Source of the DNA: Acidobacteriota bacterium | GTDB taxonomy: Bacteria; Acidobacteriota; UBA890; WLXD01 | NCBI GenBank assembly: GCA_965248695.1 | Contig: CBDFKD010000002.1 | Location: 160,001 to 224,000, forward strand | Direction of reading: 5' to 3' | Length of the DNA stretch: 64,000 nt | Shown: positions 5,982 to 45,429 of the stretch, one piece after another | Layout: each line of letters begins with the position of its first letter | Numbering within the stretch: position 1 is the stretch's first letter | Translations under genes and position numbers: made by a program | The notes under the pieces: generated by a model | Seen by the model: only the letters and a program-made list of their open reading frames with translations | What the model was told of the DNA's origin: nothing | Database searches by the model: none

Positions 5982-7106
5982 ATGAGCGAGAAGAACGTCA
6001 TCGATCGACGGAAGTTCGTTACCCGCGCCACGGGCGCCGTAGCTGGCGCCGCCGCACTCGGCGCCTGTGCGGGCGACAACGAGGGCGGTCCTGCCGTTCA
6101 CACACAACAGAACGTGCGCTGGCGCCTGGCGGCGAGCTTCCCGCGCAGCCTCGACACGCTCTACGGCATCAACGACTACCTCGCCGAGCGCGTCAGCCAG
6201 ATGTCCGAAGGGCGATTCACCATCCGGCCGTATCCCGCCGGCGAGATCGTACCGGCGCTGCAAGTGCTCGACGCGGTGCAGCAGGGCACGGTCCAACTCG
6301 GCGAGACGACCAGTTACTACTACATCGGCAAGAACCCGGCGCTGGCGCTCGATACCGGTATCCCGTTCGGCCTGACTGCGCGGCAGCATTTCGCCTGGAT
6401 GTACGAGGGTGGAGGCCTGGAGCTACTCCGCGAGCTGTTCGCCGACTTCAACATCATCAATTTCCCCGCCGGCTCGACCGGTTGTCAGATGGGCGGCTGG
6501 TTCCGCAACGAGATTCGGGGTCTGTCCGACCTCGGTGGTCTCAAGATGCGCATCCCGGGACTGGGGGGCGAGGTCATGAGCCGGCTGGGGGTGGCGGTAC
6601 AGGTACTCGCCGGCGGCGAGATCTATCAAGCGCTGGAACGCGGTGCCATCGACGCCACGGAGTGGGTCGGGCCACACGACGATGAGCGCCTGGGACTCCA
6701 TCAGGTAGCCAACAACTACTATTCGCCGGGATGGTGGGAGCCCGGCCCCTCGATCTCCTTCTACGTCAACCGCGATGCGTGGGAATCCCTGCCTATCACC
6801 TACCGCGAGATCCTCAGCAGCGCGACGATGGAAGCGGCAGCACGCATGACCGCCCGCTACGACCACCTCAATCCGCTCGCCCTGGAGCGCTTGCTCGCCG
6901 CCGGCGTGCAGCTGCGCACGTTCCCGCGCGACATCATGGAAGCTGCCTACGAAGCGTCGTACGACCTGTTCGAGGAACACGCCGCGGCAGACGCGGGGTA
7001 TCGCAAGATCTACGAGCAGTGGCTGCAGTATCGCGCCGTCTCCGATCGATGGTTCAACACTGCGGAGGCCGACTACACCCGATTCGTCTACGATCACCGC
7101 GCCTGA
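5982..7106 (+). CDS. dctP: TRAP transporter substrate-binding protein (DctP/TakP type)
   Basis: Tat-like DRRKF leader; QMGGWF, GLKMRIPG, LERGAIDATEW, YYSPGWWEPG. Confidence 0.9.
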   Translation: MSEKNVIDRRKFVTRATGAVAGAAALGACAGDNEGGPAVHTQQNVRWRLAASFPRSLDTLYGINDYLAERVSQMSEGRFTIRPYPAGEIVPALQVLDAVQQGTVQLGETTSYYYIGKNPALALDTGIPFGLTARQHFAWMYEGGGLELLRELFADFNIINFPAGSTGCQMGGWFRNEIRGLSDLGGLKMRIPGLGGEVMSRLGVAVQVLAGGEIYQALERGAIDATEWVGPHDDERLGLHQVANNYYSPGWWEPGPSISFYVNRDAWESLPITYREILSSATMEAAARMTARYDHLNPLALERLLAAGVQLRTFPRDIMEAAYEASYDLFEEHAAADAGYRKIYEQWLQYRAVSDRWFNTAEADYTRFVYDHRA

Positions 7107-7239
7107 GTCGGGACACAGTCCCCCACTTGGGGCCTCGACAGCCGCCGAACGGGTTGTTCGAGAGCGTCACTGCGCCGGGAATCACGAACCGGCGCCTGCT
7201 ACACTCGAATCAGCCCCTGGGAAAGTCGAGACTGGATCC

Positions 7240-8529
7240 ATGTTCAGAGGCCGCCTTCTGGTCGTCGCCGGCCTGCTAGTCACGGCAGCGTCGGTCGCCG
7301 TACCGTCCGTCGCCCAGCTGTCCGCCGGCCCATCGGGCCGGGCGCTACCGTCCAACCCTTACTGCCTGATCGGCGGATGTGGGTATGGGCGCGATGGAAT
7401 ACCCGAGCCCTACGCCGGGGGTGGCCTCACCGGCCGCTCGGCGCGTGCCTACTCGAGATCCGCCGACCCGATCTTCACGTCGCAGAGGACCTCGATGCTC
7501 TCGTGGGTGTCGAGCGCCGACATGAACGGTACCCCGACGAACGCCAACGACATATGGGGATACACGTCGCCGAGCGGGCGCGAGTACGCCATCGTCGGCC
7601 TGAAGATCGGCACTGCCTTCGTCGAGATCACCGACCCGGTCAACCCGCGGGTTGTCGGCATCATCGGCGGCGCAACGTCCGATTGGCGCGATATGGCGGT
7701 GTACCGCAGCTACGCCTACTCGATCAACGAGAGCAACGATGGCATTCAGGTTATTGACCTGTCGCGGATCGACCGCGGTGTCGTTTCCCTGGCAAACCAG
7801 GTGACCGACGCCGGCCTGTTCCGCGGCCACAACATCTACGTCAACGAAGACAGCGGCTACGCCTATGTTCTGGGCTCCAACATCGCCCGTGGCGGCCTGC
7901 TGGCAGTGGATCTGAGCGACCCCGCCAACCCGCGCCTGGAACCGGTCAACTGGGAGGTCACCTACGTCCATGACGTCTACGTCACGACGTACAAGAAGGG
8001 TCGGAACAAGGGCCGCGAGATCGCCTTCGCATTTACCGGCGTGTTCGGACTCCACATCATCGACGTAACCGACAAGGCCAACCCCACGACCTTGGCACAT
8101 CTGGACTACGACAACGCCACCTACGGGCATAGTGGCGCCCTGAGCGCCAACGGTCGGTTCCTGTACGTCAACGACGAGCTCGACGAGCGCAGCAATCCGA
8201 ACGTCGATCGCATGACGACCTATGTCGTACGCGTCGGCGACCTAGAGCGTCCGGTGCTGATCAACACAATCGACTGGGACACGCCGGTCATCGATCACAA
8301 CTCGATGATCCAGGGCGACCGCATGTTCGTATCGGCTTATCAGGGTGGCCTGCGCGTGATCGATCTCGAGAACCCCCGCAAGCCCACTGCGCGTGGCTAT
8401 TTCGATACCCACCCCGAGGGCGAGGGCGCCACCTTCAACGGCGCCTGGGGCGTGTACGCCGGCTTCGCGAGCGGCAACGTGATCGTCTCGGACGTCCAGC
8501 GCGGGCTCTTCGTCATCCGCTCGAACTGA
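7240..8529 (+). CDS. Choice-of-anchor B / LVIVD-repeat secreted protein
   Basis: Signal peptide; NDIWGYT..GREYAIVG, WRDM, HNI, YVHD, IDHN, FNGAWGVY. Confidence 0.8.
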   Translation: MFRGRLLVVAGLLVTAASVAVPSVAQLSAGPSGRALPSNPYCLIGGCGYGRDGIPEPYAGGGLTGRSARAYSRSADPIFTSQRTSMLSWVSSADMNGTPTNANDIWGYTSPSGREYAIVGLKIGTAFVEITDPVNPRVVGIIGGATSDWRDMAVYRSYAYSINESNDGIQVIDLSRIDRGVVSLANQVTDAGLFRGHNIYVNEDSGYAYVLGSNIARGGLLAVDLSDPANPRLEPVNWEVTYVHDVYVTTYKKGRNKGREIAFAFTGVFGLHIIDVTDKANPTTLAHLDYDNATYGHSGALSANGRFLYVNDELDERSNPNVDRMTTYVVRVGDLERPVLINTIDWDTPVIDHNSMIQGDRMFVSAYQGGLRVIDLENPRKPTARGYFDTHPEGEGATFNGAWGVYAGFASGNVIVSDVQRGLFVIRSN

Positions 8530-8556
8530 GCCGGAACGCCTTCGCGCGACGGATTC

Positions 8557-9879
8557 TCAGCGTAGCAGCGTCGTGACGATCTCCGGATAGACGATGATCA
8601 GCAGCAGCCCGATGAGCTGGATGACGATGAACGGCACGACACCGCGATAAATCTGCATCGTCTCCACCTCCGGCGGCGCCACGCCACGAAGGTAAAACAG
8701 CGCGAACCCGAACGGCGGCGTCAGGAACGAGGTCTGCATGTTGACGGCGATCATCACCGCGAACCACACGAGATCGAATCCGAGCAGGGCGGCGGCCGGC
8801 ACCAGCAACGGCACGATGATGAAGGTGATCTCGAAGAAGTCGATGAAGAATCCCAGGACGAAGACCGTCAGGTTGGCAGCCACTAGAAAGCCGATCGCAC
8901 CGCCGGGAAGATTGGTCAGCAACTCTTCGATCCAGATGTCGCCATAGACGCCACGAAACACCAGCGTGAACGCGGTGGAGCCAATAAGAAGAAACAGGAC
9001 CATCGACGTCAGGCGGGTAGTGTGATCGAGCGCCTGCTTGACAGCGTCCATCGACAGCCGGCCGTTCAGCCAGGCGAGCACCATGGCGCCGACAGCGCCG
9101 AGTGCGCCCGCCTCGGTGGGCGTGGCGATGCCGGCGAAGACGCTGCCCAGAACGACCAGAATGAGGGTCAACGGAGGCACCATCACCAGGCCCACGTCGC
9201 GCAGCAGCCGCCATCCGAACCGCATGCGCTCCTCTGGCGGCAGCGCCGGAGCGGCAGTCGGTCGGACGATCGCCACCGCAATCACGTAGGTTGCGTATAG
9301 GCTCGCCAGCAGCAGGCCCGGCAGCAACGCCCCGACGAATAGCGAGCCGACTGAGATCCCCATCTGGTCGGCGAGAACGATCAGCACGACGCTCGGGGGA
9401 ATGATCTGTCCGAGCGTTCCGGAGGCGGCGATCACCCCGGCCGACAGCTCCGGTGAGTACCGATACCGCAACATCACCGGCAACGAGATAAGCCCCATCG
9501 CCACGACGGAAGCCCCGACCACCCCGACGGCGGCCGCCAGCAACGCCCCGACGAACACGACCGCCAGGGCGAGCCCGCCCCGCAGCGGTCCGAAGAGCTT
9601 ACCGATCGTCGTCAGCAGGTCCTGTGCCAGCCCGGACTTCTCCAGCACCGTTCCCATGAAGATGAAGAACGGCACCGCCAGCAGCACGAAGTTCGACATG
9701 ATGCCGAAGATGCGCTCCGGCATGGCCAGCAACAACGGCCAGTCGAAGAACCCGGCGGCGACACCCACGAATGCAAAGATCACCGCCGTCCCGCCGATTG
9801 CGAACGCTACCGGGAACCCGGTGAAGATCAGCACCAGGAGCACGACGAACATCGAGATCGGCAGCCAGTCGCCGCTCAT
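8557..9879 (-). CDS. dctM: TRAP transporter large permease
   Basis: Highly hydrophobic; GTLGQIIPPS, ATPTEAG, SFLTPPFGFALFYL. Confidence 0.92.
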   Translation of the reverse strand: MSGDWLPISMFVVLLVLIFTGFPVAFAIGGTAVIFAFVGVAAGFFDWPLLLAMPERIFGIMSNFVLLAVPFFIFMGTVLEKSGLAQDLLTTIGKLFGPLRGGLALAVVFVGALLAAAVGVVGASVVAMGLISLPVMLRYRYSPELSAGVIAASGTLGQIIPPSVVLIVLADQMGISVGSLFVGALLPGLLLASLYATYVIAVAIVRPTAAPALPPEERMRFGWRLLRDVGLVMVPPLTLILVVLGSVFAGIATPTEAGALGAVGAMVLAWLNGRLSMDAVKQALDHTTRLTSMVLFLLIGSTAFTLVFRGVYGDIWIEELLTNLPGGAIGFLVAANLTVFVLGFFIDFFEITFIIVPLLVPAAALLGFDLVWFAVMIAVNMQTSFLTPPFGFALFYLRGVAPPEVETMQIYRGVVPFIVIQLIGLLLIIVYPEIVTTLLR

Positions 9880-10421
9880 GGCGTTGGCCCCGACTGTGCG
9901 CCGTCATTGGCGTCCGACCCGGCGCGCAAGAGGGTTGTCTTGCGAACAATTTCCGCCAGCCCCTGCAGCAGCAGCAGCCCGAAGGCCACCAGAATCATCG
10001 CCTTGATCGGGTAGCGCGGAAGCCCACCCGGATCCGGGGAGGCTTCCCAGATCGACCAGGAGTTGAGCACCGTCGGCAGACTTGCCCAGATACAAAAGAC
10101 CGCGAACGGCACCAGCAGCACGATCGTTCCGACGAGATCGACCCACAGCTTGGTGCGCTCCGAAAGCCGCGTGTACAGCACGTCGACGCGCACGTGATCG
10201 TCGCCCTTCAGCGCGTAGGCGGCACCCAACAGGAACACGAGGCTGAACAGGTACCACTGCATCTCGAGGTACGCGTTGGAGCTCAGGTTGACACCGATCC
10301 AGCGACCCGCGTACCTCGCCAGCGCGTTGTACGCGCCGATCAGAACCATGGCGAGGACCAGCCAAGAGACGGCGCGCCCGGTCCATTCGTTGAGCGCGTC
10401 GACGACACGAACGAAGCTCAC
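9876..10421 (-). CDS. dctQ: TRAP transporter small permease
   Basis: Four TM segments, HVRVDV motif; overlaps the dctM start. Confidence 0.88.
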   Translation of the reverse strand: MSFVRVVDALNEWTGRAVSWLVLAMVLIGAYNALARYAGRWIGVNLSSNAYLEMQWYLFSLVFLLGAAYALKGDDHVRVDVLYTRLSERTKLWVDLVGTIVLLVPFAVFCIWASLPTVLNSWSIWEASPDPGGLPRYPIKAMILVAFGLLLLQGLAEIVRKTTLLRAGSDANDGAQSGPTP

Positions 10422-10568
10422 GATCGGTTACCTCGGGCGGCAGGTCAGACGACGGCCGGAGTCTACACCTGTCGGGTGGACCACATCGTTGGCAAGACGT
10501 GTGTCCGCTAGGCATGGCACTAAGTTGTGCTGGGTCCGGGGTCCGCCGCCTGGTTGCCGGCCGTGTCC

Positions 10569-11882
10569 TCAGCGAACGAGAAGAACGCGATCGTTGGCCG
10601 GATACAGCCACTCGACGCCACGCTCGGTAACGATCGCGTCGTCCTCCAGGGGTATGCGGATCTTCGCGCCACCCCATTCCGGTGCCGCCGTGTAGGCGAA
10701 CAGCTCGATCGACAGGAGGTTGGTCGGCTGGATCTCGAACGTCAGGCGCAGCGGGTTGAACCACGCAATCGACGGGCCGACGCCGTGACCGAGGTTCCCA
10801 ACCGAGTGGCAACCGATGATGACCTCGGTCTTGTCGCTACCGGAGATGACGTTGAACTCCTTCATCATCTCGAAGCCGCCAGCGGTGATCTCGTCGTGCA
10901 ACCGCTCGAGCATGTCGGCGGCGGTCGGCCCCGGCTTGATGGTGCGTCGAATGATGTCACGCACCTTCCGAGCTTGATCGAAGGCGTTCTGGATGCCCGC
11001 CGGCGCTGCCGCTTCGCCCGCGCGCAACACGTAGGCGATGCGCTTCATGTCCGTGTACATGTTCAGGAACCCAACGCCCCAGTCGATCATCAGCAGATCG
11101 CCGCGCTGGATGATGCGCTCATTGGACGTCGCTACGATCCCTTCGGGGCCGGTGATGTAGATCGACGGAAAGTCGAAGGAGGTTTCCAATCCCCGCGCCA
11201 AGAGCTCGTCCATGATCCACCAGGCCACGTCCTCCAGCGCTGTCACGCCAGGCGTGATGACCTCGTTCGACAACGCCCGCTCGGCGATCTCACGCGACAG
11301 CTCGCCGGCCTCAGCGAAGGCGGCGATCTCGCTCGCTACGCGACGGGAGCGGAAATCCGAGATCAGCTTCTCGGCCGATACAAGCCGTTCGGCGTATGGC
11401 TCGCCGAGCGTCTCCACCAGGTGTACGTAGCTGCTGTGCGACAGCCCATCGGCACCGCCGATCTGGTGCGACATGTTGACCGCGATGCGCTCGGGGTTGC
11501 GCGCCAGCACGAACTCGCGCAGCTCCGTTGCCCCGACGATGTCGTAGGCACCGTTCTCCTCCAGGAGGTAGCCGCTGATACCCAGTGCGGCACGCTCGAT
11601 GCGCCCGCCCCGATCCGTGAAGATGTAATAGCCGGTGCTGCCAACGTAGCCGCGCCCCAGGTCCTCCGTCAGCGGATCCGGCGACCCCTCCTTGACGACG
11701 GTGATCCACATGTCGACGCGATTCTGTCGCATCGCCTCCGGCAGCACGTAATCGAACTTGTCGCGCCGGATCTGCGCCATACGTTCCCAGCGCCGTCTGG
11801 CTTCCTGGCCGCCGGCGTCCCCAGGAATCAGGGTGGTGAGGCACAAGAGCAGGCAGGCAAGAGCTCCGAGTTGTCGACGCAC
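10569..11882 (-). CDS. M24 family (Xaa-Pro-like) metallopeptidase
   Basis: Pita-bread metal ligands IDWG, TDMKR, CHSVG..GH, SIE, LEDD; GTG start at 11882 preceded by GGAG. Confidence 0.8.
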   Translation of the reverse strand: MRRQLGALACLLLCLTTLIPGDAGGQEARRRWERMAQIRRDKFDYVLPEAMRQNRVDMWITVVKEGSPDPLTEDLGRGYVGSTGYYIFTDRGGRIERAALGISGYLLEENGAYDIVGATELREFVLARNPERIAVNMSHQIGGADGLSHSSYVHLVETLGEPYAERLVSAEKLISDFRSRRVASEIAAFAEAGELSREIAERALSNEVITPGVTALEDVAWWIMDELLARGLETSFDFPSIYITGPEGIVATSNERIIQRGDLLMIDWGVGFLNMYTDMKRIAYVLRAGEAAAPAGIQNAFDQARKVRDIIRRTIKPGPTAADMLERLHDEITAGGFEMMKEFNVISGSDKTEVIIGCHSVGNLGHGVGPSIAWFNPLRLTFEIQPTNLLSIELFAYTAAPEWGGAKIRIPLEDDAIVTERGVEWLYPANDRVLLVR

Positions 11883-11991
11883 AGCGGTCTCCGCGTTGAT
11901 GAAACCCCACCGCAATCGCTGCGTCTATGATGATAGACAACAGTACCGGCGGCGCGAATCGCCGCGACCGGCAGAGCGGAGGAAGGTCAGT

Positions 11992-12192
11992 ATGTGGACG
12001 TTTTTCTTGTGGTTGATCTTGCTGATGATCAGCTGGCCGGTGGCGCTCCTCGCGCTGATCGTCTACCCGTTCGTATGGCTGCTGACCCTGCCGTTCAGGC
12101 TCATCGGCATCGGTGTTTCGACGATCTTCGAGACCCTGCATGCCCTGCTGGCGCTGCCGGCGCGCATGCTCCGAGGTCCGAGCCGAGCCTGA
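11992..12192 (+). CDS. Small (66 aa) membrane protein of unknown function
   Basis: GGAGG upstream of ATG 11992; very hydrophobic (WPVALLALIVYPFVWLLTLPFRLIGI). Confidence 0.65.
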   Translation: MWTFFLWLILLMISWPVALLALIVYPFVWLLTLPFRLIGIGVSTIFETLHALLALPARMLRGPSRA

Positions 12193-12298
12193 GATCAGAT
12201 CGACGCGTCAGGATCATAGCCGACCGGGCTAGTCGCGCACAGCAACGCGGTCGCAGCTCGCCTGGACCCGGCTCAAACGCCTCTGGCGAGAGCGTCGG

Positions 12299-13823
12299 CT
12301 ACGAGGCCGCGCGGCTGCGGAAGGGCACCACCGACGGTCCGGCCGTCTGCTGCAACTTGCTTCGCAACAACGGCTCGATCTCTTCGGGGGGCATTGCCTT
12401 TCCAAGCAAGTGACCTTGCACCGACTCGCAGTCGAGCGCCCGCACGAAGCGTAGCTGGGCATCGTTCTCGATACCCTCTGCGACCACTCCTAGGCGCAGC
12501 TTGTGCGCCATGGCGATGATCGCAGCCACCAGGCTGCAGTTCTCCTGATCCTCGGGCACACCCTCCAAGAACGACCGATCGATCTTCAGAACCTCAGCCG
12601 GAAACCGCCTCAGGTAGCTGAGGGAGGAATACCCGGTTCCGAAGTCGTCGACCGACAGCCCGACGCCCATGGCACGGAGCGCGTGGGTGTTGGCCACCGT
12701 CCCCGGGGTGGCGCGCATGAGCACGCCCTCGGTGATCTCGAAGCGGAGAAAAGACGCGTCGACCCCATGCGTGTCGAGGATCGACCGCACCCGATCGACG
12801 AAGCCAGTATGCCGGAACTGGCGTGCCGATACGTTGATCGCCACGGTCACACGCCCGACGCCACCGTCGAGCCACTCGCGCCACTGCTTGCAAGCGCGCT
12901 CGATCACCCACTCGCCGAGTGGCAGGATGAGTCCGGTCTCCTCGGCCACCGGTATGAACCGCGATGGCGAGACCGGCCCGAGCTCGGGATCCCGCCAACG
13001 AATCAGGCAACCCGGTGAGCGTGTCGCGATAGGCGAGGAAGCGGATCTCAGCCTCGGCCGCCTTGCGATCGGTTACGTCCTGTACGGTACCCAGTAGCCG
13101 CTCATCGCCATGTCGCTGCAGAGCGATCTCGGCGTGCTGGAACACATGCCGAACCTCTCCGTCGCGCTCGCGCGTCCGGTAGCCGATCTGGTCAGATGCA
13201 TCACCGTCTATTCCCCGCTGCAACGCCTTCCGAACGCCTTCGACATCGTCCGGATGCACCTGTTCGAGCCACCGCTCGAGCGCCACGGTGGGCGTCGGTT
13301 CGATCTGGAAGATACGGAACATCTCCTCCGACCACGCGAACGCCCGCTCCTGGGGGAGATGAATCCAGTTGCCTAGGTGAGCGATGCGTTGCGCCGTCGC
13401 CAGGCTGGCGCGGCTCTCGCAGAGATCCCTGAACGCAGCACCGGCCCGCAGCAGATAGCGCACTCGGTGGCGCAGGGTCGTGGCGCACACCGGCTTGTCG
13501 ATAAAGTCGGTGGCCCCCACCTCGTACGCCTGGTCCCGCGACTGCTCATCGCCGTTCCCGGTCATCATCAACACCGGAAGATCGCGCGTCGACTCGCTGG
13601 CCCGCAGGCGACGGCGAAACTCCAGCCCGTCGATGTCAGGCATGCAGACGTCGGTGAGGATGAGGTCCGGAAGGCCTCTGCCGAGCTCGGCGAGCGCTTC
13701 CTCTGCCGAACAAACTTCGACTACCCGAGCGATCGGCCCCAGCGCGGCGGCCGTGTAGAGACGCATCTGGGCGTCGTCGTCGACCAGCAACACCGTCGGC
13801 TGTGAGGAATTGGAGTCCGGCAT
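12299..13823 (-). pseudogene. REC-PAS-(GGDEF deleted)-EAL c-di-GMP signalling gene, internally deleted and frameshifted
   Basis: Receiver (LLVDDD, LTDVCMP, FIDKP) and PAS run to YRDTLTGLP, then the frame shifts at about 13006 into LIRWRDP..FIPVAEETG..EITE..DDFGTGYSSL..LKIDRSF..VAEGIE. Confidence 0.8.
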
Positions 13824-43198: not shown

Positions 43199-44002
43199 AT
43201 GAAGCGACTGCGGCCGCTCTTGGCGGCAGCCCTGCTGGCACTCACGCCGTCGTCAACGGGACTCGGCGCACCCGGCGTCGACAGCGCAGCTGCGGCTCGC
43301 TGCACCTGTATGTCACCGAAGCGTCCCGCCTGCGAGGTGTGGTGGCAGACGGCGGCGATCTTCGTCGGACGTGTGACTCGCCTGGACACCGTGACGGAAG
43401 AAGTGGACGGCGATACCCAGATCAAGATCTTGGCGACCATCCGAGTGCAGGAACGCTGGCGTGGCGCCGAAGGACAGCGTGACGTCGTCGTGGCTACGGG
43501 AGCCGGCGGCGGCGATTGTGGCTTCCAGTTCGCCTTGAACCGCACCTATCTCGTCTACGCCAACCAGTCGTCTCGAACAGGCCGTTATGAAACAGGGATC
43601 TGCTCACGCACCTCCTTGGCTCGGGATGCCGAGATCGATTTGACGTATTTGCGTGGACTCGAAACCGCCGACAAGGTGGTCTCGCTCTACGGGATGGTCT
43701 ATCGGGAGCGTCAACAGCTGCCTCCCGGTACCGATCGCAGCCTCGACATGCGACTGGATCCAGGCGGTCCGGTCGCCGACGTGCGCATCAGCCTGGAGGT
43801 GACGGTCGGCGAGGAACAAACCTACGTCAGCGACAATGATGGCTGGTTCGAGATCGAGGGTCTGCCGGTCGGCCTGTACGAGGTGCAGCTGGACGCGCCG
43901 CAGATCGAAGACACCGCACGCTGGCGGCTTCGGATACCCATCGCCCCCGCCTGTATCTGGCGCAACCTGATCGTCGAACCGCTGCCGCTAGACGGCGGAT
44001 AA
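43199..44002 (+). CDS. Secreted TIMP/netrin-like domain protein with C-terminal carboxypeptidase-regulatory-like beta domain
   Basis: CTC, AIFVGRV, GGGDCGFQF...YLVYA, GICSRT; later SDNDGWFEIEGLPVGLYEV. Confidence 0.7.
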   Translation: MKRLRPLLAAALLALTPSSTGLGAPGVDSAAAARCTCMSPKRPACEVWWQTAAIFVGRVTRLDTVTEEVDGDTQIKILATIRVQERWRGAEGQRDVVVATGAGGGDCGFQFALNRTYLVYANQSSRTGRYETGICSRTSLARDAEIDLTYLRGLETADKVVSLYGMVYRERQQLPPGTDRSLDMRLDPGGPVADVRISLEVTVGEEQTYVSDNDGWFEIEGLPVGLYEVQLDAPQIEDTARWRLRIPIAPACIWRNLIVEPLPLDGG

Positions 44003-44083
44003 CGGTCCCTGCGACGGTCCCGCGAGCGGCCAGCTTAGCGCCCGGCTTGGCAACGGTCCGGACTCCGCCGACGAAGGCGCCCC

Positions 44084-44122
44084 TGCGAGGCGAAGCCAGC
44101 TACTGCCAGGTTTCGCCTCGCA
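44084..44122 (+). terminator. 14-bp hairpin between the TIMP-like gene and the convergent ncRNA candidate
   Basis: TGCGAGGCGAAGCC (44084-44097) pairs with GGTTTCGCCTCGCA (44109-44122), one G-U on the + strand; no U-tract. Confidence 0.5.
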
Positions 44123-44153
44123 CCCCTCGGGCCATTCCGGGTACCAAAAAATT

Positions 44154-44603
44154 GCCCGGATGATTGCCGCGACGGCCTCCCGTGGGGTCCGGAACCCTCC
44201 GTCGCGGCGTATCTCGAGCTTCCCTCGGCTCTACGGCTCGACTTCTGACTCTTGCGAGCCTTCCGTCGACCCTGCCACCGACATCACTCTGACGAACGTG
44301 CCGGTAACTCCGTTGCTCTCCGGCTCCCCCTTGCGGGTTTGCCTTCCAGCTCCGTCAAGGTCTCCCACTCGTCCTTGCGAACGTCTGGTCCACCTCTCTC
44401 AGGCAGTCGCCTTCCACCCTTGCGGGCTTCCAGCGCCTCCCCGGGCGTCCCGGGCTCCCTCTCGAACTCCCGGTTAGCCCCGAACCCTTTCGCATCCCCT
44501 TGCGGTTCCGCTTCCAGGCTCGTCGAGCCGTCTTCCACTCAAGGTCGTTTCACGACCTCAACAGGTTCCGAATCTCCCGTTTGGCCGGGGCAATCATCCG
44601 GAC
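44154..44603 (-). ncRNA. Candidate large structured ncRNA (about 450 nt), family not recognised
   Basis: 5' GUCCGGAUGAUUGCC (44603-44589) pairs with 3' GGCAAUCAUCCGGGC (44168-44154); five C-GCAA-G tetraloop arms; G-U pairs and GNRA loops point to the minus strand; followed by AAUUUUUU; no credible ORF. Confidence 0.78.
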
Positions 44604-44610
44604 CCGACCG

Positions 44611-44639
44611 ATCAAACTATGGACGTACTGTGGCGGCAA
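44611..44639 (-). promoter_or_regulatory. Putative sigma70-like promoter of the ncRNA candidate
   Basis: TTGCCG (44639-44634), 17 bp spacer, TTTGAT (44616-44611); overlapping TAGTTT is an alternative -10; predicted start near 44604 coincides with the terminal helix; AT-rich tract at 44680-44706. Confidence 0.45.
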
Positions 44640-44841
44640 GCGCGACGGAGAATTTTCTTCGCCGGTCGCGCAAGAAGTTCATAAGATCATTTAATCCAAT
44701 ATGTTACGGATCCTCGCCGGCAGCTGAACGCATCTGGTGAACACCGAAATCCGGAGACAGTCAGGAACCCCCAGCGTCGCGAGATGTGTCCGGGGCCGGC
44801 GGCGCGGCGCGCGGCGGTGCTTTCCGAGCGATAATCTGCGC

Positions 44842-45429
44842 ATGAGCGTCCAAGATCCAATCGCTCGGTTCCTCGAGCTTCAACGACGCGCAGAGCGCAA
44901 CGGTGAGCCGCAGCGCGCTACCGCTATGACGCTGGCGACCGCGACGTCCAACGGACGGCCCTCGGCGCGCATGGTGCTGCTGAAGGGAGCCGACGAGCTC
45001 GGCTTTGCCTTCTACACCAACTACGGCAGCCGGAAAGCCGCCGAGCTCGAGGCCAACCCGAACGCGGCGCTAGTCTTCTACTGGCCCACGCTGTCGACTC
45101 AGATACGTGTCGAGGGCCCTATAACCCGCGTCCCAGACGCGGAGGCCGACGCTTACTTTGCCTCCCGACCGCGTCAGAGTCAGCTCGGTGCGTGGGCCTC
45201 CAAGCAGAGCGCGCCGCTCGAGGGCCGTCGCGCGCTGGTCGTGCGTTATCTCACCGAGAAAGCCCGCCGGCTGGGTCAGACGATCCCGCGACCCGAGTTC
45301 TGGGGCGGCTACCTGCTACGTCCCGTACGCATCGAGTTCTGGGAATCGCGCCTCGGGCGACTGCACGATCGCACCGAGTACACGCGCTCAGGAGATGACG
45401 AGTGGCGGCGGGCGATGCTGTACCCGTAG
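44842..45429 (+). CDS. pdxH: Pyridoxamine 5'-phosphate oxidase
   Basis: AMTLAT, PSARMVLLKG, FYTNYGSRK, YFASRP..SQLGAWAS.QS, WGGY, EFW, RLHDR, LYP. Confidence 0.95.
   Translation: MSVQDPIARFLELQRRAERNGEPQRATAMTLATATSNGRPSARMVLLKGADELGFAFYTNYGSRKAAELEANPNAALVFYWPTLSTQIRVEGPITRVPDAEADAYFASRPRQSQLGAWASKQSAPLEGRRALVVRYLTEKARRLGQTIPRPEFWGGYLLRPVRIEFWESRLGRLHDRTEYTRSGDDEWRRAMLYP

Follow-up and report, generated by a model that had tools for sequence, protein, structure and literature searches.

Near-universal small RNAs of bacteria are few: transfer-messenger RNA (tmRNA), the RNA of RNase P, the RNA of the signal recognition particle (SRP) and 6S RNA. Actinobacteria do without 6S, and passages of PMC9130861 describe a longer RNA of that group, Ms1 (~300 nucleotides, nt), that binds RNA polymerase. 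Large ornate bacterial RNAs form RNA-only complexes visible by cryo-electron microscopy, according to bioRxiv 10.1101/2024.12.08.627333. Here we describe an RNA gene found in a 64-kb stretch of DNA (hereafter the window) from Acidobacteriota bacterium (UBA890; WLXD01; assembly GCA_965248695.1, contig CBDFKD010000002.1, positions 160,001-224,000 of the forward strand), whose genome comprises 5.89 Mb on 2 contigs and is 96.4% complete. Coordinates below are those of the window.

The minus strand from 44603 to 44146 is almost certainly a stand-alone non-coding RNA gene with its own sigma-70-type promoter and, at its end, a helix followed by a U tract; it is an enlarged orthologue of an RNA, P1, that is specific to one class of Acidobacteriota. 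An original prediction, made from the letters of the window, had proposed a stand-alone structured RNA at this place. The fold, homologues throughout the class, covariation, the lack of a conserved open reading frame (ORF) and contigs from RNA libraries all support that proposal, and the tests by which it might have failed (homologues, covariation, a transcript, a conserved overlapping ORF) were run or approximated without overturning it. The family to which the RNA belongs, rods of 176 nt found class-wide with an enlarged form in the window, is new; no database entry for it was found.

Fold, homologues and covariation

The RNA gene (44146-44603, minus strand) is ~458 nt long including the U tail. 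Folding of 471 nt of the minus strand gave -223.9 kcal/mol, compared with -185.6 +/- 6.2 kcal/mol for 100 dinucleotide shuffles (z -6.17, none of the 100 as good), whereas the plus strand reached z -2.50 with 2 of 100 shuffles as good; the preference for the minus strand, previously based on GNRA loops and G-U wobbles, thus held against shuffled controls. In the minimum-free-energy (MFE) structure, nt 1-21 of the RNA (44603-44583, the 5' strand of the closing helix) pair with 44178-44154, a helix longer than the 15 bp of end pairing noticed at the outset. Beyond it, the long basal rod extends to RNA nt 79/373, where a seven-way junction begins. The hairpins of this junction, recognized from the MFE branches, from helices 7-22 on alignment A5 and from internal direct repeats, make up a distal domain (44231-44525, minus strand) in which GCAA caps five of the seven hairpins and symmetric purine-rich internal loops of the GGAA/GGAA type occur in most. 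All five C(GCAA)G arms of the prediction (44482-44521, 44408-44435, 44365-44388, 44315-44350 and 44238-44269) were recovered, each capping a hairpin of the junction. CGCAAG occurs five times in the 458 nt of the RNA, always on the minus strand, and 46 times in the 64-kb window on both strands.

Searching 60 relatives at the DNA level, we found a full-length match of 91-96% identity in all four other genomes of the genus; of the six remaining genomes in the window's family, four matched in part. Genomes of the second family of the order matched only at the last ~36 nt (query 440-475, 83-89% identical), and there the matching 5' and 3' ends lay just ~175 nt apart. These short forms of P1 are 175-179 nt long, with paired ends and a U tract, and each folds as one long rod. 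A covariance model built from six P1 sequences (R1) located P1 in eight genomes of the second family and in one genus (g2) of the window's family.

Two paralogues were found along with P1. P2, of 176-181 nt, scores 43-57 bits with R1 and has the 3' block GGGAGGCCGAUCGYGG, with one extra A; its loci (L062:1501-1677, minus; L065:1502-1678, minus; L058:1501-1676, plus; and 13 more) lie in the other family and carry a P1-type promoter, and R1 did not find P2 in the window's family. P3, of ~102 nt, has a TTGACA promoter, the closing helix and the GGGAGGCGAUCG block with almost no middle part (L145 and L146, ~1501-1605, minus; L068:366-467, plus). P2 and P3 are present in one family of the class, and in three genomes of the window's family (G000, G005 and G007) a pattern search together with R1 detected P1 only. 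As P3 retains the basal helix and the block common to all forms but nothing else, the common denominator of the family is the basal domain, which suggests that this domain is the common functional unit.

DNA search and R1 combined, some member of the family was present in 22 of the 26 genomes of the class; the class holds a single order, so that counts for the order and the class are the same. Members were found in 10 of 11 genomes of the window's family (not in G010, 77% complete) and in 12 of 15 of the other family (not in G015, G017 and G025, which are 88, 72 and 55% complete). Outside the class, R1 detected none in 139 Acidobacteriota genomes, a result that speaks for the short forms only because R1 misses the enlarged ones; DNA matches of 28-48 nt in G046, G047, G054 and G060 (E 2.8e-4 to 8e-3) were treated as chance. 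A scan of 185,579 species genomes with an exact pattern returned 44 matches. The 25 with a T run are family members (21 in records of Acidobacteria/Acidobacteriota, 4 in those of 'uncultured bacterium'), and the remaining 19, with neither a T run nor the 5' motif, were dropped as chance. A metagenome scan added 32 further loci. In total, we collected 43 distinct members, 31 of them short (15 P1 and 16 P2; 175-181 nt) and 12 enlarged (351-510 nt). Homologues, by which the prediction was to stand or fall, therefore exist throughout one class.

Short and enlarged forms have in common the basal rod and two internal-loop motifs, GUUGA(A)GG (44562-44556) and (C/U)GGAG(G/A)G (44201-44195). The former reads GUUGAGG in the window and GUUGAAGG in short forms; the latter reads CGGAGGG in the window and CUGGAGRAG in short forms. 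Both motifs are conserved in alignments A2, A3 and A5, and they are the candidate 5' and 3' sides of a bubble (44556-44562 and 44195-44201, minus strand). The most conserved block of all, GGGAGGCCGUCGCGG..AUCAUCCGGGC (44154-44181, minus strand; query 440-475), includes the 3' strand of the closing helix and bulges; it is 83-95% identical across the order and has invariant columns in A2 and A5.

The enlargement starts at the apical loop of the short forms: about 31 nt of rod are kept beyond the conserved loops, and enlarged forms then bear 5-10 hairpins in place of one apical hairpin. Four of the five genera in the window's family have the enlarged form. Genus g2 keeps the short one, which indicates that the enlargement arose within this family. 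In short forms, two stem segments separated by a small internal loop rich in purines (GA-type) make up the apical hairpin, whose terminal loop is GAAA, GCAA or GCGA, or UUCG-type in P2. The first module of the window RNA (CGGAACCGCAAGGGGAUGCG) resembles this hairpin as it appears in certain short P1 sequences such as L012. The modules are connected by direct repeats within the RNA (D1, D5, D7 and D12), of which D7 reaches 92% over 13 nt and D1 73% over 26 nt. We infer that the RNA grew by repeated duplication of an apical module of stem, purine-rich symmetric loop, stem and GCAA loop. Because the RNA of ~450 nt expanded within one lineage from a rod of ~176 nt, it is the basal rod, not the ornate part, that makes up the conserved functional core.

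Covariation, likewise called for by the prediction, supported the fold in both short and enlarged forms. When the 31 short forms were aligned to R1, 92.0% of cells were paired, compared with 32-42% when slid, and 29 of 56 pairs showed compensatory changes, including 4 in the closing helix; none of 500 shuffles reached any of these measures, in an alignment that leans towards the model. Employing MAFFT and RNAalifold independently on 14 P2 sequences, we obtained this rod again, with compensatory changes at 13 of its 48 pairs. When P1 and P2 were aligned together with MAFFT (A2), a misaligned middle limited RNAalifold to the basal helices; separate and model-guided alignments were used instead. 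On the alignment of the 12 enlarged forms (A5), 86.3% of cells were paired against 34-44% when slid, with compensatory changes at 52 of 146 pairs, a fit somewhat favoured by the structure being the window's MFE mapped onto the rows, one of which is its source. The 21 pairs of the closing helix (helix 1) were formed in 99.2% of cells of A5, and two of them had compensatory changes (column 13/507, G-C becoming U-A; column 9/511, G-C becoming A-U). In the distal domain, helices 7-22 were 69-100% paired, and 13 of these 16 helices had compensatory pairs.

Expression, identity and gene context

Four metatranscriptome libraries from two studies, labelled as one marine sediment and three sponge samples, contained a small share of a 2.2-kb stretch at this locus. 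Contigs of 58-602 nt were placed at a likeness of at least 85%. On 44156-44595, 15 of the 21 contigs were 95-99% or more alike and two were under 90%. Word depths reached 6,784-12,599 (X2), 2,064 (X3), 59 (X4) and 2-7 (X1); the contigs give no strand, no ends and no reliable level. One whole contig from each study stops with no loose end, at 44594 and at 44595, a weak hint of the 5' end; two further contigs have loose ends, of 28 letters at 44592 and of 255 letters at 44594. No RNA-library contig was placed on the flanks 43200-44087 and 44606-45400, which we did not use as evidence, as the flanks of relatives may be less than 85% alike. RNA-library contigs lie on the predicted ~450-nt RNA, although contigs of this kind do not give its strand. 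In one X1 contig (record 2), 44515 is connected to 44363 through an insert of 15 other letters; this rearrangement of 44363-44515 may reflect a different order or number of hairpin modules in a relative, or a mis-assembly.

The RNA belongs to no family of Rfam 15. None of its 4227 families matched at the gathering score in the 64-kb window, and at E up to 10 the RNA region gave only three matches at chance level (13-13.6 bits); the prediction, which could put no family name to the RNA, was right in this respect. Among these searches, ROOL, GOLLD, OLE, raiA and ribozymes had no match in the window or, at E up to 10, in the region. Matches of PyrR205, H19_2, flg-Rhizobiales, MIR1846 and RF_site8 across the region, 10 homologous loci and a short form were set aside as chance. 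Genes for RNase P RNA (290 bits), SRP RNA and tmRNA (166.8 bits) were found at other places in the same genome, so that the window RNA is none of these, in agreement with the earlier failure to see RNase P or tmRNA signatures. For SRP RNA, two places in this one genome score above the cut-off of the small bacterial model: G000:C2:2283459-2283558 and G000:C2:2816376-2816463 (69.9 and 52.8 bits). No description of the RNA was found in the literature searched, including passages of PMC2864571, bioRxiv 10.64898/2026.10.21.760802 and PMC9130861, a statement that excludes supplements such as the Additional Files of PMC2864571 (extra 6S representatives, Acido motifs).

The predicted promoter (44611-44639, minus strand) consists of TTGCCG (44639-44634), a 17-nt spacer and TTTGAT (44616-44611), followed after 7 nt by the first base of the RNA, G at 44603. 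We read the same elements that had been pointed out originally, and in family-level homologues the TTTGAT box, the 17-nt spacing and a TTG-type -35 element all recur. Short forms have TTGACAG-17-TAnnnT at an equal distance from the RNA start, with an A tract upstream. At the other end, AA and six U (U tract, 44151-44146, minus strand) follow the closing helix directly, in the geometry of an intrinsic terminator. This U tract, also part of the prediction, is kept in every homologue: 43/43 distinct members have 5-10 consecutive T after the helix. In many members, including the window (44146-44160; CCGGG...CCCGG) and short-form loci such as L010 (GGGCA-U7-UGCCC), the bases flanking the U tract are complementary. 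The tract could hence also be the loop of a small hairpin, which may be an element serving both convergent transcripts.

Upstream of the RNA, and divergent from it, lies pdxH (44737-45429, plus strand; PNPOx_N, E 3.1e-28), as had been recognized. The neighbour on the other side, convergent with the RNA (43199-44002, plus strand), had been called TIMP-like; its protein instead has a weak CarboxypepD_reg match (E 2.2e-6, below the Pfam cut-off). Between the stop of this gene and the 3' end of the RNA there is a 14-nt inverted repeat (44084-44122; 93% complementary, 11-nt loop) with no T run after it on either strand, which may be a terminator or processing hairpin of the CarboxypepD_reg-like gene. 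The order pdxH, RNA, CarboxypepD_reg-like gene is conserved in the window's family. In the other family, P1 is located downstream of citrate synthase on the same strand, with its own promoter, at 4/4 loci examined, and is followed by a gene for an HtrA-type protease at both loci examined (2/2); P2 is divergent from an SNF-family transporter gene at two of four loci. Comparing loci of the two families, we found no neighbour gene conserved across the class. With neighbours that differ between the two families, the RNA is not tied to one mRNA.

It is very improbable that the region is something other than a stand-alone RNA, be it a small protein gene, a leader or riboswitch of a neighbour, or a miniature inverted-repeat transposable element (MITE) bounded by terminal inverted repeats. 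Pairing of the two ends does recall such repeats, and ORFs of 84-162 amino acids overlap the region. However, the RNA is single-copy (one match, itself, among 18 candidates in the 5.89-Mb genome), which rules out a MITE or other repeat element, and its orientation, convergent or divergent to its neighbours, together with the different neighbours in the other family, contradicts a leader. Protein coding was ruled out by frame-breaking indels and flat codon-position counts: relative to the window, the indel runs were single-base in 5/5 cases in G004 and 5/5 in G002, both genus-level relatives, and substitutions over the codon positions of three overlapping ORFs (42/49/46, 43/36/52 and 44/34/37) showed no periodicity. 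The two plus-strand ORFs scanned against Pfam (162 and 105 amino acids) had no match; an 84-amino-acid ORF on the minus strand was not among them. In the gap between the flanking genes, said originally to hold no credible ORF, no ORF is conserved across genus-level relatives.

Competing helices near the 5' strand

Two smaller elements of the prediction proved to compete with long-range helices. The local hairpin GAGGUCG-UGAAA-CGACCUU (44541-44559, minus strand) has a conserved 5-bp core with two compensatory pairs, and to this extent the claim stands; the MFE structure nevertheless uses its 5' strand for a covarying long-range helix. The strand 44555-44550 (GUCGUG) pairs there with CGCGAC near 44206-44201, forming helix 4, in which 4 of 6 pairs are compensatory on A5. 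The local hairpin and helix 4 are thus mutually exclusive, sharing one strand, and both covary across genera.

The second element, a 10-bp stem between GCCGCGACGG (44208-44199) and CCGUCGCGGC (44175-44166) on the minus strand (44166-44208), excludes the closing helix. Across the 12 homologues it can form in 85.8% of cells, compared with 25-60% when slid, but its 3' arm never varies, so that covariation there is impossible. CGCGAC is complementary also to GUCGCG, an invariant sequence in the 3' strand of the closing helix, and this is the pairing of the 10-bp stem; the stem may be a by-product, its partner strand resembling the 5' strand of helix 4. Together, the local hairpin and the 10-bp stem would make a coherent alternative fold that frees the 5' end. 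Such a fold could be a switch, triggered for example by occupation of the 5' strand, and could equally be a co-transcriptional intermediate. This arrangement is not evident in the short forms.

A possible 6S-like function and comparison with known systems

A class without a recognizable 6S offers a concrete functional hypothesis, that of a 6S stand-in; the scaffold or protein-sequestering role put forward by the prediction may yet hold. The Rfam 6S model (RF00013) matched none of the 26 genomes of the class, whereas among 35 other Acidobacteriota it matched 24, with 22 of them scoring above the cut-off; the three other near-universal small RNAs are all present in the window's own genome. Canonical acidobacterial 6S matches measure 174-188 nt, the short forms 175-181 nt. 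The family is class-wide and probably strongly promoted, and the window form is probably abundant. By analogy, we tentatively propose that the window RNA works like 6S, as a decoy of RNA polymerase whose tip has been replaced by duplicated GNRA hairpin modules. The rod would mimic promoter DNA and sequester the polymerase; the GUUGA(A)GG and (C/U)GGAG(G/A)G loops, ~41-50 nt from the 5' end, would mimic the open bubble, the basal helix the downstream DNA and the ~30-bp arm beyond the loops the upstream DNA. We take the bubble of Escherichia coli 6S, and the start of its product RNA, to lie at about the same place. The ornate domain, at the former apical loop, would be beyond the footprint of the polymerase and free to grow, and might add a second function in stability, self-association or binding of another partner.

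Several observations weigh against this proposal. RF00013 had no match in the window RNA (E up to 10), 10 homologous loci (E up to 1) or a short form (201 nt, E up to 10), which leaves the window RNA outside the Rfam 6S family, and none of the sequence motifs of canonical acidobacterial 6S recur. The predicted bubble is small, with loops of 6x3 and 3x3 around a 3-bp helix that itself has one compensatory change and a G-U wobble in 5/14 P2 sequences. Unpaired-probability profiles single out no central open region in P1 and P2 more than in canonical 6S. P3 keeps the basal helix and the GGGAGGC block with no room for a bubble, and the basal domain as common denominator argues for a partner that reads this domain. 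Moreover, 11 of the 35 other Acidobacteriota also lack an Rfam 6S match; a missing hit is hence common in the phylum and may reflect limits of the model.

Synteny says nothing either way. A gene for 5-formyltetrahydrofolate cyclo-ligase (PF01812), the usual neighbour of 6S in several phyla, was not found in 5/5 genomes of the class searched (G000, G005, G007, G011 and G012; 91-97% complete). At 12 canonical acidobacterial 6S loci, no same-strand ORF of at least 80 amino acids starts within 500 nt downstream, with two exceptions (an 80-amino-acid ORF overlapping the RNA and a 90-amino-acid ORF 244 nt away).

Among the other functions considered, a decoy or scaffold for a different RNA-binding protein is possible though doubtful. 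Such a protein would read the basal domain (GGGAGGCCG(A)UCGYGG and bulges), the purine-loop/GNRA modules, or both, and the enlargement would multiply its binding sites in the manner of a CsrB/RsmZ-type sponge. The basal block speaks for it, being the sole part common to P1, P2, P3 and the enlarged forms and conserved beyond the needs of pairing, as do the repeated modules of the distal domain and the high word depth in RNA libraries. No gene for CsrA (PF02599, 0 matches among 29 candidates), Ro/TROVE (PF05731) or Hfq (PF17209) was found in the window's genome, however, and no Rfam match of Y-RNA type in the window; the protein would have to be another, and no protein gene is conserved as a neighbour across the class. 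CsrA sites present GGA in hairpin loops, whereas the GGA motifs here lie in internal loops. The short forms, moreover, have a single module, so that multivalency cannot be the ancestral function. The paralogues P1, P2 and P3, with a common motif, strong promoters and terminator-like 3' ends as in multi-copy small RNA (sRNA) families, could also be read as sRNAs that pair in trans, for instance by GGGAGG of the basal loop with C/U-rich mRNAs. We regard this as distinctly unlikely: apart from the missing Hfq, the motif lies largely in a helix or small internal loop, almost the whole molecule is base-paired, and the tight length of the 176-nt rod is unexpected for an sRNA that acts by seed pairing.

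It is likewise unlikely that the RNA acts by its own architecture, through tertiary contacts of GNRA and purine loops, self-assembly as in ROOL, GOLLD and OLE, or as a ribozyme. Five GCAA hairpins and a conserved UUCGUCAGA-type hairpin on a multi-way junction, with covarying distal hairpins, would suit such a role. Most of the class, however, has no distal domain, and where it occurs the number of hairpins varies between genera (351-510 nt), unlike a precise tertiary machine; A5 showed no invariant unpaired core in this domain, and no match to ROOL, GOLLD, OLE or any ribozyme was obtained with Rfam. Returning to the polymerase decoy, we consider a bolder version improbable, in which the class replaced 6S with unrelated rod RNAs and the decoy of one family gained a GNRA domain with a second activity. 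That activity could be multimeric self-assembly or a conformational switch, the latter fitting the covarying, mutually exclusive helices at 44555-44550; if true, the RNA would be the first regulator of the 6S type to carry an effector domain both ornate and evolvable.

Whatever its partner, a class-wide, probably abundant and covariation-supported RNA with no database entry carries more weight in a phylum known mostly from uncultured genomes. A covariance model of the family would allow a strong and otherwise unexplained signal to be labelled in metatranscriptomes of marine and sponge origin. Together, short and enlarged members make up a before-and-after series for a small RNA becoming ornate by duplication of hairpin modules at a tolerated position, a series relevant to how large structured RNAs such as ROOL and GOLLD originated. 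Should the RNA be a 6S stand-in, polymerase decoys would, as with Ms1, have been reinvented or have diverged beyond recognition, and the family would be a new sequence solution to promoter mimicry. We tentatively take the RNA for a 6S/Ms1-like housekeeping decoy; the family could also be a new RNA class altogether.

Compared with CsrB and RsmZ, the window RNA has similar repeated purine-rich (GGA) modules and a likely high abundance, but its GGA motifs are in internal loops, its hairpin loops are GCAA and its genome has no CsrA gene. With ROOL, GOLLD, OLE and raiA it has in common the size class, many GNRA hairpins on multi-way junctions and a function unknown at discovery; its ornate part, in contrast, is a recent and variable add-on to a small rod in one acidobacterial class.

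The best precedent for a class-specific replacement is Ms1, which is lineage-specific, longer than 6S, structurally related to it, found in a group without canonical 6S and bound to RNA polymerase (passages of PMC9130861). No sequence relation to Ms1 was found, its place among the 4227 Rfam families being unchecked. Ms1 binds the core enzyme and not the holoenzyme, and has its extra hairpins at the ends and not at the tip. With 6S, the family has in common the size of the short forms, a rod closed by its ends, conserved internal loops ~40-50 nt from the 5' end, independence of neighbouring genes, apparent abundance and presence in a class where RF00013 finds nothing. It differs in having no covariance-model match at the thresholds tried, no common motifs and loops much smaller than the classical bubble; it ends at a terminator-like U tract, and the window form carries a multi-hairpin domain of ~295 nt at its tip.

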